Shown here one piece after another: positions 5,421-8,904 of a stretch of 64,000 nt of DNA. Location: the sequence record PZ452610.1. One strand, written 5' to 3'. The position numbers were made by a program, and so were the translations under genes. The notes beneath the pieces were generated by a model. That model made no database searches, had not been told where the DNA came from, and was given only the letters and a program-made list of their open reading frames with translations. How positions within the stretch are numbered: position 1 is the stretch's first letter; each line of letters starts with the position of its first letter. Origin of the DNA: a phage.

Positions 5421-5885
5421 TTATTTAATTTGTTTAGCAGACCAGATACGGTCTTTAATAAGTTTTTGGATATCTTCAACATACTCAAGGCTATGAGCGT
5501 GAGGATTATCTTTGAAGCTATGTGCTCGTGCCAGTTTCTGGCCTTCTGTTTTGATTACTAAAAGCTCTTTAAGAATTGCTTCATACTTAGAAATAATTCC
5601 TTTGGCGATATTTTTTTCTTGAGCTGCTTTAGGGTCTGTTTTTGGCGCAGGTGCTTTACCTGTAGCTTTCTGGAACAATTCACCTGATGCAGCTAGGCTT
5701 TTAAAAACTCGGCTAACAGTATTAGCATTAGTAAAACCTTCGGCTTTAAAATCTCTAATAAAACGGAAACGTTCTTCATCAGAGGCGTCTTTGTAAGAAT
5801 ATTTACCTGCTTGAATTGCTGCAATCGCAGCGGCTTTTACATCTGAACTAGATTGTTCAGTCAAAAATTCAGCGTATGATTTCAT
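5421..5885 (-). CDS. putative capsid-packaged internal protein (CTS-like N-terminus)
   Basis: N-terminus MKSYAEFLTE resembles T4 internal-protein capsid targeting sequence MKTYQEFIAE with LxE cleavage site; basic 154 aa. Confidence 0.55.
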   Translation of the reverse strand: MKSYAEFLTEQSSSDVKAAAIAAIQAGKYSYKDASDEERFRFIRDFKAEGFTNANTVSRVFKSLAASGELFQKATGKAPAPKTDPKAAQEKNIAKGIISKYEAILKELLVIKTEGQKLARAHSFKDNPHAHSLEYVEDIQKLIKDRIWSAKQIK

Positions 5886-5930
5886 GTTGCTTTTCCTAAG
5901 TTAATTAACTTATCTATTTATTATTATGCC

Positions 5931-5957
5931 AAAAAGCCCCGACCTTTCGGAAGGGGC
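5931..5957 (-). terminator. rho-independent terminator
   Basis: GCCCC-gacctttcggaa-GGGGC hairpin; TTTTT on minus strand. Confidence 0.6.
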
Positions 5958-6269
5958 TAAGCCTTGCGGCAACCTTGTCGGGGTTCCACCTGCTAAGGCA
6001 AGTGTTTGTACGAAACGCCGGGATTCGAACCCGGTTATTAAGCAGTTGACGCTACTCAATATTTTTAAAAGGCCATATCTCGACCATATCCGAACGTTCC
6101 GTCAAAAACGCTACTCGGCTTACGGCAAAGATATTTCCTCGAATCGATAATTCTGTGCGCCGTTTCTGCTGTGATGTAAGGGGATATTAACAAATCGTAA
6201 AGATTTATTAAGACCAGTCCTTACTCAGGGAACATCAGTCCGACGACTTGCCGGTAGCGACCCGGCTTC
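5958..6269 (-). ncRNA. non-coding structured region with tRNA-like T-arm hairpin (possible small stable RNA or tRNA remnant)
   Basis: No credible ORF; minus-sense CCGGG-TTCGAAT-CCCGG canonical T-arm at 6016..6032 but no canonical cloverleaf; bounded by terminator. Confidence 0.3.
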
Positions 6270-6614
6270 TTATTTTGACATATCATCAATTTGCTCTCGA
6301 CGCCGACGCCATAGATTAATCGCTTCATTAACACATTCGGCGTTTGGTATATGACGGCAATAATATAATGATTCGCGTTTCTGGAACCGATGTTGCAATG
6401 GAATTTCGTTTAAAAGGTCTTTACGGTCAAAGTATTCAAAACCGGTTAACCCAGAACGGTTTTTAAGAAACTTCCAATGTCCGAATTAATTTTGAAAATA
6501 AACATAATCAGCATGTTGATATAACGAATTAATCAACCGGTCGGAAATAACTGTTTCACGTTCGTTAAAATAAAACGTTAAATCATGAACTACCAGATAA
6601 ACATTGCCTTTCAT
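6270..6614 (-). pseudogene. ORF interrupted by in-frame TAA (41 codons, stop at 6488..6486, then 72 sense codons)
   Basis: Same frame read through by eye: MKGNVYLVVHDLTF...YFQN*FGHWKFLKNRSG...DDMSK; second part has no ATG start. Confidence 0.45.
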
Positions 6615-6632
6615 ATTTTCCTCACTTAAAGT

Positions 6633-6709
6633 TGGTCGAGACAGAAGGATTCTAACCTTCAACCTACGGATTAGAAGTCCGTTGCTCTATACAATTGAGC
6701 TATGCCTCG
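6633..6709 (-). tRNA. tRNA-Arg (anticodon UCU)
   Basis: Manual cloverleaf: acceptor CGAGGCA/TGTCTCG, D-stem GCTC/GAGC, anticodon stem ACGGA/TCCGT with loop CUUCUAA, T-stem GAAGG/CCTTC, encoded CCA. Confidence 0.7.
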
Positions 6710-6712
6710 GAT

Positions 6713-6789
6713 TGGTGACCCAGACCAGATTCGAACTGGTAACCTTTCCCTTATGAGGGGACTGCTGCTAACCATTGAGCTACAGGGCC
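6713..6789 (-). tRNA. tRNA with CAU anticodon (Met or Ile-type)
   Basis: Canonical T-arm ACCAG-TTCGAAT-CTGGT, anticodon loop CUCAUAA, encoded CCA; acceptor and D stems have mismatches. Confidence 0.5.
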
Positions 6790-6794
6790 TAAAT

Positions 6795-6850
6795 AACTTT
6801 CTATTATGAAAGGCACTTTAGAGCACCTTTGGTAATAGAGGGTATGAATT
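6795..6850 (-). promoter_or_regulatory. sigma70-like promoter upstream of tRNA pair
   Basis: minus-sense TTACCA ... 17 nt ... CATAAT ending ~14 nt before tRNA 5' end. Confidence 0.3.
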
Positions 6851-6868
6851 AATAATAACACATAATTT

Positions 6869-7384
6869 TTAAAGCAAATCAATCATTTTAACAGTCGGCA
6901 AAACGATTTCTTCTTCAATATAAGCAAATTCAACACATTCAACTACACGCAAGAAATCATAATCATAATATTCAGAAGCATGGCCAAGAATATCAATGAG
7001 ACCTTCTGATACTAAATATCCGTTCTCACGGAACAGGTCAAATACACGTGATTCGTCTTCTTCAGATTTATTACCAAGGTCAACTTCAATATCAAAGACC
7101 TTTTTAATGAATTCTGGATAAAGATGGTCTGAGAACAGTCCTTCAACCAGATATTCGTAGATAATAAGCGAGCAATCACTGAATGGTGTATTACCACAGT
7201 AACGTTCAGCTTTAGTGCTAGAATGACTACTCTTAAATTTCTTCAAGAGATATTTAAACTGTTGGAGCTCATGCTCTTCTACACCAAATAATGTTTTGGT
7301 TTTATAGCTGTCGCCGTCATTTTCCGAAGTAGTGACATCAATTACGTAACCCTTAGGAATTGTACTACCTAAACAAATATTCAT
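6869..7384 (-). CDS. hypothetical protein
   Basis: 171 aa, ATG start; last gene of a 4-gene coupled operon. Confidence 0.55.
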   Translation of the reverse strand: MNICLGSTIPKGYVIDVTTSENDGDSYKTKTLFGVEEHELQQFKYLLKKFKSSHSSTKAERYCGNTPFSDCSLIIYEYLVEGLFSDHLYPEFIKKVFDIEVDLGNKSEEDESRVFDLFRENGYLVSEGLIDILGHASEYYDYDFLRVVECVEFAYIEEEIVLPTVKMIDLL

Positions 7385-7388
7385 TTAC

Positions 7389-7679
7389 TCACCGTACCAT
7401 ATTAATGTAGTTATATTCAATGCAACGTAATTTCAAAGGGTTCTTGAAAATATCATATTCAAGAGGGCCTGATTCAGTTTCAATAAAGAAATCAAAATTA
7501 ACTGTGTTAAATTTATTGTCTTCACAGAGTAATTTAACCTGTGAAGATGAACGGTCGATATAAACCTTTTCAACCTCAAAGTTAGTCAGAATACCGTAGT
7601 CATCGACTAGTGCTTTAGCTGCACGTTGGTCGCTTTCATATCCATTCTCAACGGATTTTACCTTAGCATAAAGAATCAT
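7389..7679 (-). CDS. hypothetical protein
   Basis: 96 aa; ATG overlaps stop of upstream ORF (ATGA). Confidence 0.55.
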   Translation of the reverse strand: MILYAKVKSVENGYESDQRAAKALVDDYGILTNFEVEKVYIDRSSSQVKLLCEDNKFNTVNFDFFIETESGPLEYDIFKNPLKLRCIEYNYINMVR

Positions 7680-8038
7680 GAATGTTCCACCACTTCAAAG
7701 GTATGAGCATCAACAATATGGTACCAGTCAAAATTTTCTTCCGCGTTTTTATAAATTTCGCGAAGAGCCTCAACAGTTTTTCCTGTAGCAACAAGGTCGT
7801 CAATACCGCCAAGAGGATAACAGTCGTAACCGGCAAACAGAATGAAATTAATAGTTTCTGTAGGGGCCGGATGCAGTGTACCATTGTCATCGACTACTTC
7901 AAAGAACATATAACCAGGCGATTTAGATTTAATCCAAGCCCATGCTTGAGCTGCTGAATCAAATGGTCTGCGTATCAAACGACAATCAGGGTCTTTAGAA
8001 GGATTTGCTTCAAAATCCGCATATACGTGATATTTCAT
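7676..8038 (-). CDS. hypothetical protein
   Basis: Track start is TTG at 8071; preferred ATG 8038 (MKYHVYADF...) with AAGGTGAG RBS right after upstream stop. Confidence 0.55.
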   Translation of the reverse strand: MKYHVYADFEANPSKDPDCRLIRRPFDSAAQAWAWIKSKSPGYMFFEVVDDNGTLHPAPTETINFILFAGYDCYPLGGIDDLVATGKTVEALREIYKNAEENFDWYHIVDAHTFEVVEHS

Positions 8039-8039
8039 T

Positions 8040-8225
8040 TTACTCACCTTTTGCAATTTTATCCATAACAATAGCGATTAAACCGATTAGAAATGCTACT
8101 ACCAATGAGATAGAATTTTCAGTTGTTGTCAGTAGTCCGCAAATGAATCCTACAAACATCGAAAAACTAAAAGCCATTGAAGCAATTACTACAGCAACAT
8201 TACGAATCAGTTCAGCGCGTTTCAT
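8040..8225 (-). CDS. small membrane protein
   Basis: 61 aa, two hydrophobic segments; promoter cassette 8249..8285 upstream. Confidence 0.5.
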   Translation of the reverse strand: MKRAELIRNVAVVIASMAFSFSMFVGFICGLLTTTENSISLVVAFLIGLIAIVMDKIAKGE

Positions 8226-8248
8226 TTTATTATCCTCTCATGTTTTGA

Positions 8249-8285
8249 TAGGACTACTATAACATAGTCCTATCATCATGTAAAC
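8249..8285 (-). promoter_or_regulatory. early-type promoter with palindromic stem-loop (PeSL-like)
   Basis: gataggactactataacatagtcctatc perfect palindrome; minus GTTTAC -35 and TATAGT -10 with 18-nt spacer. Confidence 0.55.
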
Positions 8286-8287
8286 TA

Positions 8288-8551
8288 TTAAATACCAGCT
8301 TCGCGTTTAACATAATCGACGTAAGCTTGGATAGCTTTCTTGCTGGTAATTTTTACCTGGCCACGACCATTGCCTTCTTTAGAGTTTTTCTTAACAACTA
8401 CATTACCATCTTTAACACCCCATACATGGACGTAAGTACCGATGTTTCGGTCGTAGAACATTGCATGGTCATTGTTGTAAGAGAATGATTCATAGTTCTC
8501 TGTCAAAGCAAAAGATTCGGATTCTGCGATAAATTCTTTATACGTTTTCAT
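8288..8551 (-). CDS. internal protein (capsid targeting sequence MKTYKEFIAE)
   Basis: N-terminus matches T4 IP capsid-targeting sequence with LxE/IAE cleavage context; 87 aa. Confidence 0.7.
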   Translation of the reverse strand: MKTYKEFIAESESFALTENYESFSYNNDHAMFYDRNIGTYVHVWGVKDGNVVVKKNSKEGNGRGQVKITSKKAIQAYVDYVKREAGI

Positions 8552-8574
8552 TTATTTTTCCGTTTGGTTGTTTT

Positions 8575-8613
8575 GATAGGACTACTATAACATAGCCCTA
8601 TCAAGATGTAAAC
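8575..8613 (-). promoter_or_regulatory. early-type promoter with palindromic stem-loop (PeSL-like)
   Basis: ttgataggactactataacatagccctatc plus gtaaac. Confidence 0.5.
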
Positions 8614-8616
8614 TAC

Positions 8617-8904
8617 TTACAGAAGAGTTTTTGCAATAATTTTAAGCTGAGCTACAGAAATATGCTTAGCTTTAAACAGTGCGGTCTCTTCAGCCGGAGA
8701 GATAACAATAGTAGCGCCATCTTTCTTAGCAGACCATCCATCCCCTAAGTAAACAGTACCTTTTACTTCTTCGCCGTCAACCAGACTAATCATTGGTTTA
8801 CCCTCACGTCCTTTATTTGCTTTAATAACTTCGGAAGTAAGGGTTGCTTCGGTCAGAGTAGAAACGTTAGCAACAGGTGATATAAATTCTTTATAGGTTT
8901 TCAT
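8617..8904 (-). CDS. internal protein (capsid targeting sequence MKTYKEFI)
   Basis: N-terminal CTS-like MKTYKEFISP...LTE; 95 aa; ipII/ipIII position next to 57B. Confidence 0.7.
   Translation of the reverse strand: MKTYKEFISPVANVSTLTEATLTSEVIKANKGREGKPMISLVDGEEVKGTVYLGDGWSAKKDGATIVISPAEETALFKAKHISVAQLKIIAKTLL

Follow-up and report, generated by a model that had tools for sequence, protein, structure and literature searches.

Three putative T4-type internal-protein genes, one of them ipI, in an RB69-like Mosigvirus

Introduction

Three open reading frames (ORFs) in a 64,000-nucleotide stretch of phage DNA (record PZ452610.1; the whole stretch is hereafter the window) begin with similar N-termini, which raises the question of whether all of them encode internal proteins (IPs) of the T4 type and, if so, what those proteins would do on entering the host. 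The initial annotation, made from the letters alone, had compared these N-termini to the capsid targeting sequence (CTS) of the T4 IPs, which is cleaved by the prohead protease gp21. All three ORFs were recovered with the N-termini that it had reported, and all are on the minus strand:

8617..8904, minus strand: ORF1, ipI, 95 residues; propeptide/CTS in codons 1-19 (8848-8904), ending in LTE; mature IPI* of 76 residues (8620-8847)
8288..8551, minus strand: ORF2, 87 residues; CTS MKTYKEFIAE plus a linker to LTE18 (8498-8551); predicted mature product of 69-77 residues, isoelectric point (pI) 8.9-9.4
5421..5885, minus strand: ORF3, 154 residues; CTS MKSYAEFLTE (5856-5885); predicted mature product of 144 residues, 16 kDa, pI 9.6

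We predict, at a probability of roughly 0.75, that ORF1-3 are T4-type IP genes, whose products would be packaged in the head, trimmed by gp21 and injected with the DNA. Over 3.8 kb, the sequence around these genes is that of Escherichia coli O157 typing phage 3 (KP869101 / NC_041863; 100% identity), an RB69-like Mosigvirus of the Tevenvirinae, and the window is oriented as the T4 map.

Capsid targeting sequences and cleavage sites

The resemblance of the three N-termini to the T4 CTS is far beyond chance. When residues 2-10 were scored with BLOSUM62 against the T4 CTS MKTYQEFIAE at the 1248 ATG/GTG/TTG starts of ORFs of at least 40 residues, in six frames across the whole window, ORF2 (42), ORF1 (33) and ORF3 (30) took the first three ranks, as the initial annotation would lead one to expect, with the fourth best start at 16 and a background of mean -7.4 and standard deviation 6.6 (z = 7.5 for ORF2, 6.1 for ORF1 and 5.7 for ORF3). 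A scan with the motif MK[ST][YF].[ED][FYL] likewise matched only these three among 1671 starts. The LxE/IAE cleavage motif that the initial annotation named for the T4 CTS has its counterpart here, an L/I-x-E of the gp21 type within the first 19 residues of each ORF: LTE19 in ORF1, IAE10 and LTE18 in ORF2, and LTE10 in ORF3, with every one of the three thus having a potential propeptide of 10-19 residues that ends in this motif.

Mutagenesis of the T4 IPIII CTS has established that targeting depends on an aromatic residue at position 4 and on Phe at position 7, and processing on positions 8 and 10 (PMC9026906, section 2.6); Y4 and F7, by which CTS membership is judged in that work, are present in all three ORFs. 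The same constraints are visible across 14 CTS variants carried by unrelated bodies, in which position 4 is Y/F and position 7 is F without exception, position 8 is I/L in 12 and position 10 is E in 11, with positions 3, 5 and 9 freely variable. The ORF2 CTS differs from MKTYQEFIAE at a single position (K5 for Q5), and some ORF2 alleles are identical to it. The codon differences between the ORF3 CTS and the ipI-locus CTS are synonymous and conservative, so that the likeness is one at the amino-acid level and a recent DNA copy of the ipI-locus CTS is ruled out as its origin. Downstream of these N-termini, the mature products of ORF1-3 would all be small and basic (7.9-16 kDa, pI 8.9-9.6).

ORF1 and its identification as IPI

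By sequence, ORF1 is almost certainly IPI. Its residues 20-95 match the Pfam model IPI_T4 (PF11634) over positions 1-76 of 76 (E=1.3e-50; 169.7 bits against a cut-off of 25), to which neither ORF2 nor ORF3 has any similarity, and phmmer aligns it end-to-end with the mature T4 IPI* of PDB 2JUB (5.8e-42; 72/76 residues identical) in an alignment that begins right after LTE19. The solved mature IPI* thus begins where the predicted cleavage falls. ORF1 is, furthermore, identical to RB69 IPI (RB69p155 minus its annotated MEPK extension). RB69 IPI is reported by Thomas et al. to be four residues apart from T4 IPI and to prevent GmrSD restriction of RB69 (PMC6024577); by way of that work on an identical protein, ORF1 is predicted to inhibit GmrSD-type type IV restriction, and its passage through the IP pathway would likewise follow from direct homology to a characterised protein.

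The impression of the initial annotation that the bodies are unrelated to the T4 IPs accordingly fails for ORF1, which is IPI by the Pfam, 2JUB and RB69 comparisons, and holds for ORF2 and ORF3. Whole-body BLASTP found no relationship of the latter two to T4 IPI, IPII, IPIII, Ip5 or Ip7, and tblastn with T6 Ip6 gave a match to ORF2 that is limited to the first 11 residues. The motif scan recovered no ipII/ipIII-type genes in the window. Outside the window, two further CTS ORFs of the same genome flank denV (record positions 86372-86653 and 87134-87463), one beginning MKTYSEFLSE (93 residues; homologous to Ip5, with 54% identity to the RB68 protein) and the other MKTYQEFITE (109 residues). Together with ORF1-3, these bring the genome to at least five CTS genes at three loci; and as Ip5 stands at the e-denV locus here, whereas it occupies the ipI locus in RB68 and T6, cassettes evidently move between loci.

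A rare cassette beside ipI

At the ipI locus, ORF2 represents a rare alternative cassette, set between repeated promoter-plus-palindrome units:

8924..8970, minus strand: repeat copy 1, upstream of ipI, reading GTTTACA, 17 nt, TACTAT, CCTATCAAA; repeat family D1, with a sigma-70-like match
8569..8615, minus strand: repeat copy 2, between ipI and ORF2; 94% identical to copy 3; left edge of the ORF2/Ip7 cassette
8241..8287, minus strand: repeat copy 3, upstream of tRNA.4; right edge of the ORF2 cassette

The unit of about 47 nucleotides (nt) consists of GTTTACA, 17 nt, TATAGT/TACTAT and CCTATCAAA, with a palindrome across the -10 region, and the same layout is found upstream of T4 ipI, ipII and ipIII. 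In this genome as in T4, a 9-13-bp inverted repeat lies astride the -10 hexamer of every ip-locus promoter (e.g., GATAGGACTA...TAGTCCTATC); it may serve as an operator, as a site at which read-through RNA is processed or as a hotspot of recombination.

An alignment of three Mosigviruses displays the exchange at this slot: APCEc01 has ipI, one repeat and tRNA.4, the slot being empty; ATK47 has ipI, repeat, Ip7, repeat and tRNA.4; and the phage studied here has ORF2 in the place of Ip7. The breakpoints of homology fall within the CTS codons on one side and within the promoter repeat on the other. The ORF2 body belongs to phrog_13302 (function not assigned in PHROGs) and occurs in 36 phage records and in two 90% clusters, all annotated as hypothetical.

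The only other relative of ORF2 is a 73-residue Dhakavirus protein (IME341 gp015, IME08, AnYang), which is 66% identical over ORF2 residues 17-82. This protein has no CTS and no Glu in its first 20 residues, is encoded behind an early-type promoter in the interval from gene 52 to motA, and starts almost exactly where cleavage at LTE18 would leave mature ORF2. The existence of a CTS-less relative in the early region speaks for action of the body in the host cytoplasm; the ipI-locus form would supply the same function pre-made. Packaging of ORF2 is, on its sequence, very likely.

ORF3 and the site between rnaC and e.8

ORF3 lies at a different place, between rnaC and e.8, and is bounded by its own pair of repeats:

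5915..5957, minus strand: upstream edge of the ORF3 cassette, with terminator-like hairpin repeat D2 at 5926-5957, then AATAAATA at 5915-5922, 29 nt before the ATG
5383..5414, minus strand: downstream edge of the ORF3 cassette, a second hairpin copy with a TTTTGGTAT repeat; 81% identical to 5926-5957

The gene follows the conserved rnaC terminator hairpin, and after the second hairpin copy comes a TTTTGGTAT/CTAGG junction. T4 has at the same site one hairpin copy with the same GGTAT/CTA junction (GGTAT/CTAAG in T4) directly after it, and then e.8, with no ORF3; this single-hairpin structure would be as expected if recombination between repeats had removed the cassette, or if the cassette had never been inserted. 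Canonical late-promoter TATAAATA sites that precede ORF starts in the window mostly stand 27-32 nt before the ATG, which the 29-nt spacing of ORF3 fits, and in RB68 (Tequatrovirus) and Klebsiella phage RCIP0032, whose ORF3 homologues occupy the corresponding position, the repeat junction forms a perfect TATAAATA.

The site also accepts a second, unrelated gene. In RB69 it holds RB69ORF149c, which starts MKTYAEFLTE, has a body unrelated to ORF3 and is frameshifted. Genes of this type are found in 165 records and encode 187 residues when intact, as in phage ST2, which carries an ORF3 homologue and an RB69ORF149c-type gene as a tandem pair; a separate AATAAATA motif and hairpin accompany each of the two. 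In T2, T4 and T6 the site is empty, with no CTS gene there. As side observations on these two phages, RB69 p149/p148 is the frameshifted copy of the 187-residue gene that is intact in ST2; RB69 has seven CTS ORFs (p123, p124, p125, p127, p149, p155 and p156), only four of which RefSeq names as internal head/virion proteins; and the ST2 record (OM982647) has the taxonomy line Guernseyvirinae; Kagunavirus, which is probably mis-assigned, its 171-kb genome being collinear with, and near-identical to, Mosigvirus in this region.

In T4, ipI is beside 57B, and ipII/ipIII are between e and denV; recent work accordingly refers to "two Ip loci" (PMC12373910). The proposal of the initial annotation that all three genes belong to a known hypervariable locus applies to ORF1 and ORF2, which lie in the classical ipI locus (57B-tRNA.4) and show cassette polymorphism. 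It does not extend to ORF3, which is in neither recognised ip locus (57B-tRNA.4 or e-denV), although the rnaC-e.8 site, with its two unrelated CTS genes, displays analogous cassette behaviour. This site may have been left out of ip-locus counts because T2, T4 and T6 have nothing there.

The ORF3 family comprises 512 phage records (tblastn), all annotated as hypothetical, and corresponds to phrog_2280 (function not assigned in PHROGs). Identity is about 95-100% in Mosigvirus and about 73% in Tequatrovirus; Dhakavirus also has members, and in Klebsiella phages the N-domain alone is shared, the C-domain being different. An exhaustive profile-free search of 1.84 billion representatives returned 8 relatives, all phage-like and with no tie to a known family. 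A profile match to GemA (E=0.096; 14 bits against a cut-off of 27) was discarded as sub-threshold. A Logan contig of 2898 bp contains a 94-residue chimeric ORF, in which a tRNA.3-like N-terminus is joined to the last ~32 residues of ORF3; this implies a phage variant that has lost the entire tRNA/rnaC/rnaD segment by which tRNA.3 and ORF3 are otherwise separated.

An alternative is that ORF3 is not packaged at all, being instead an ordinary cytoplasmic late or accessory protein whose CTS likeness stems from shared ancestry of the initiation region or from convergence. Consistent with this, ORF3 is outside both classical IP loci (PMC12373910), is not called an internal protein in any database source, has the weakest CTS of the three (5/9 identities to the T4 CTS) and is preceded by a promoter unlike those of ipI, ipII and ipIII. 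Its homologues tell otherwise: even at about 40% identity they keep F7 and L8 without exception and, outside the Klebsiella-phage branch, an aromatic residue at position 4, and most have an L-x-E near residue 10, before the conserved SSDVKAAA start of the body, even as adjacent positions vary. The unrelated RB69/ST2 body at the same site has nearly the same first ten residues, an agreement with no easy explanation other than selection for the tag itself; the predicted cleavage point falls in a low-confidence segment immediately before the first helix of the AlphaFold2 model; and there is a large gap in CTS score between ORF3 and the other ORFs of the 64 kb apart from ORF1 and ORF2. We thus regard an unpackaged ORF3 as very unlikely, and its packaging, on these sequence features, as likely.

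A broader proposal, which we offer tentatively and would rate a little below an even chance, is that rnaC-e.8 constitutes a third, unlabelled IP cassette locus of the Tevenvirinae, built of late promoter/CTS gene/terminator hairpin modules of at least two unrelated families, whose products would be new injected counter-defence proteins; and that ORF2 would represent growth of the repertoire through the union of a cytoplasmic early-gene body (of the Dhakavirus gp015 type) with a CTS inside the ipI locus.

The proposed packaging pathway

The IP pathway further calls for a cognate protease and core, and these are encoded by the same phage (gp21, gp20, gp67 and gp68):

37966..38598, plus strand: gene 21 prohead protease (tblastn with T4 gp21: 88% identity, 209/212 residues, E=4e-126)
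35740-37308, plus strand: portal gene 20 (89% identity to gp20), with the genes for gp67 and gp68 also just upstream of gene 21

We envisage a pathway in which the N-terminal CTS would bind each protein to the prohead scaffolding core; gp21 would then cut after L/I-x-E, that is, after residue 19 in ORF1, 10 and/or 18 in ORF2 and 10 in ORF3; and the small, basic mature protein would be kept in the head and injected with the DNA. For ORF2 and ORF3, this prediction draws on the CTS, the cleavage motif, the presence of gp21 in the window, the cassette behaviour, promoters compatible with prohead assembly and small basic products. The genes also have the patchy distribution of IPs, with ORF2 in 36 and ORF3 in 512 records and truncated alleles on record, and the occurrence of truncated or frameshifted copies indicates that the ORF1-3 genes are dispensable.

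Possible functions of the putative injected proteins

Each of T4 Ip1, Ip2 and Ip3 was shown in 2025 to inhibit a distinct GmrSD variant (PMC12373910), and IPIII is a GmrSD inhibitor that works in trans when expressed without its CTS (PMC9391042, PMC12373910). These precedents hint that the likeliest target of ORF2 and ORF3 would be further first-response nucleases, most plausibly of type IV (GmrSD-family). That the two are counter-defence proteins of any kind is, in our estimate, an even bet.

One competing use for ORF2, ORF3 or both would be in the service of the virion, with the packaged protein condensing DNA, neutralising charge or acting as an accessory of the core/scaffold. A part in head morphogenesis has been suggested for T4 IPIII, mutants of which have head-assembly aberrations (PMC9026906, section 2.3). 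The basic character of the mature products is in keeping with a virion-serving role, as is the AlphaFold2 model of ORF3 (mean pLDDT, the predicted local distance difference test, of 78), in which a weakly predicted CTS (1-10) precedes an N-domain of three helices (13-67), which a basic Pro/Lys linker (72-84) joins to a long helical hairpin (85-151), giving an all-helical, two-domain protein whose hairpin is reminiscent of scaffolding proteins; ORF3 is, moreover, comparatively common and conserved. Yet the genes show clean presence/absence, with ORF3 missing from T2, T4 and T6 and ORF2 in so few records, and otherwise intact phages have frameshifted or truncated copies. Further, the ORF2 body also exists as a CTS-less early-region gene and hence would act in the cytoplasm, and IPIII itself has since emerged as the CTS-independent GmrSD inhibitor mentioned above. 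A virion-serving role is thus improbable.

Somewhat less unlikely, though still doubtful, is that ORF2 and ORF3 are injected effectors directed at targets other than type IV restriction, such as other immediate defences or, in the manner of the packaged ADP-ribosyltransferase Alt, host take-over. The locus borders acb1 (57B), which counters the cyclic-oligonucleotide-based anti-phage signalling system (CBASS), so the neighbourhood is wider than anti-restriction. Phages with ORF3-family genes belong to groups whose DNA modifications reportedly differ, namely Tequatrovirus (glucosyl-hydroxymethylcytosine), Mosigvirus (arabinosyl-hydroxymethylcytosine in RB69, PMC6024577), Dhakavirus and Klebsiella phages, which argues against a target tied to one modification, and the CTS-less relative of ORF2 sits among early host-takeover genes, from gene 52 to motA. 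On the other side, GmrSD variants are what each of the three IPs of known target inhibits (PMC12373910), and no enzymatic domain is detectable in the ORF2 or ORF3 body by Pfam, PHROGs or structure searches.

Several observations weigh against our interpretation of ORF2 and ORF3 as injected inhibitors. A literature search found no virion proteomics or N-terminal sequencing from Mosigvirus or Tequatrovirus phages for ORF2, ORF3 or a homologue. The AATAAATA motif of ORF3 is one mismatch from the late-promoter consensus, and a subset of ORF3 homologues has FLMTE, which is M-x-E and not L/I-x-E. With 470 records at 70-100% identity, ORF3 exceeds the usual hypervariable IP in both conservation and spread, and its predicted fold is all-helical with a coiled-coil-like hairpin; each of these properties would suit a structural or DNA-packing protein no less than an inhibitor. 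Searches by sequence (Pfam, PHROGs and the PDB, the last with no match) and by fold pointed to no function for the ORF2 or ORF3 body, and the AlphaFold2 model of ORF2 (pLDDT 53, from a 3-sequence alignment) was too poor for a fold search.

Neighbouring genes and RNAs

On the minus strand, the genes run in the order gene 1, 57A, 57B, ORF1, ORF2, tRNA.4, tRNA.3, tRNA.2, a 171-residue ORF, tRNA-Met, tRNA-Arg, a disrupted RB69ORF150c homologue, rnaD, rnaC, ORF3, three small ORFs, e.6 and e.5. Hence the tRNA genes do separate ORF3 from the other two, as first reported: tRNA-Met and tRNA-Arg lie between ORF2 and ORF3, together with rnaD, rnaC and four protein ORFs. The presence of tRNA genes between IP sites is nothing odd, as T4 too has ipI apart from ipII/ipIII. 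The RNA genes of this segment are:

6713-6789, minus strand: tRNA-Met(CAU), by ARAGORN (Rfam tRNA, 54 bits)
6633-6709, minus strand: tRNA-Arg(UCU), by ARAGORN (Rfam tRNA, 71 bits)
6155-6273, minus strand: rnaD, small stable RNA (blastn against T4: 86.7%)
6009-6147, minus strand: rnaC, small stable RNA, which with rnaD closes the tRNA cluster (blastn against T4: 98.6%)

The near-identity of rnaC to its T4 counterpart contrasts with the protein genes, which diverge far more between the two genera. Two tRNA genes are left here against eight in T4. An Rfam search of the rnaC/rnaD region gave no match, Rfam having no family for either RNA. Between tRNA-Arg and rnaD, the RB69ORF150c homologue (6270-6614, minus strand) has one in-frame TAA at codon 43 (6486-6488), which is a Glu codon in ATK47; the remainder of the 114-codon frame is intact, and its 3′ end overlaps rnaD, as in RB68. 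It could be a pseudogene, a sequencing error or a gene with a suppressible nonsense codon. At the other end of the region, 57B (8982-9437, minus strand), which adjoins ipI and has the RefSeq label 'RNA ligase', matches Pfam Acb1 over the full model (E=1.3e-58); the ipI locus thus borders another counter-defence gene, for an anti-CBASS phosphodiesterase.

Novelty and implications

The existence of CTS-tagged IPs in polymorphic loci is already known, and ORF1 is characterised; Petrov 2010 does not discuss IPs. What is new is in the detail: the ORF2 and ORF3 IP families, which are not named as IPs in the records examined (an earlier partial description in Repoila 1994 is possible), the rnaC-e.8 cassette site, and the pair of genes with and without a CTS for the ORF2 body. 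As CTS-tagged proteins arrive before any phage gene is expressed, they are the first counter-measure of the phage to host immunity, and ORF2 and ORF3 are two concrete candidates among the many IPs to which no target has been assigned. About 500 sequenced phages carry ORF3, among them relatives put forward for therapy; rnaC-e.8 offers a third cassette site to survey; and ORF2 and IME341 gp015 form a natural pair, with and without a CTS, that is useful for learning what pre-packaging adds. In annotation, a rule of CTS plus L/I-x-E would relabel hundreds of hypothetical proteins.

Comparison with known systems

With the IPI of T4 and RB69, ORF1 shares the length of 95 residues, the 19-residue propeptide ending in LTE and the place beside 57B, with no material difference; ORF2 and ORF3 have only the first ~10 residues in common with IPI. 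T4 IPII and IPIII resemble ORF2 in their nearly identical CTS, the same promoter-plus-palindrome architecture, a small basic product and the status of a dispensable accessory, and differ from both ORF2 and ORF3 in their unrelated bodies. ORF3 departs from them additionally in having a putative late-type promoter and a terminator hairpin in place of the early promoter-palindrome unit, and in not being in the e-denV locus.

The polymorphic ip cassettes of T-even phages (Ip5, Ip6, Ip7 and others) have been known since the 1990s (Repoila et al. 1994, as cited in PMC3012670 and PMC12373910). ORF2 behaves as one of these, standing in the exact slot of ATK47 Ip7 and swapped between the promoter repeat and the CTS codons. 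The bodies of ORF2 and ORF3 are unmatched to T4 IPI-III, Ip5 and Ip7, and that of ORF2 also to Ip6; either may still correspond to a partial sequence in Repoila 1994. The RB69ORF149c type, which is not in this window, is closest to ORF3 in organization, with the same rnaC-e.8 site, a nearly identical CTS and the same module bounded by AATAAATA and a hairpin, whereas the bodies of the two are unrelated.

More distantly, the Dar antirestriction proteins of phage P1 differ from the proteins considered here in their packaging determinants, sequences and targets, with no sequence relationship, and the comparison is one of analogy only; as outlined in PMC12810830, they follow the same general strategy of loading defence inhibitors into the capsid beforehand, for delivery together with the DNA.

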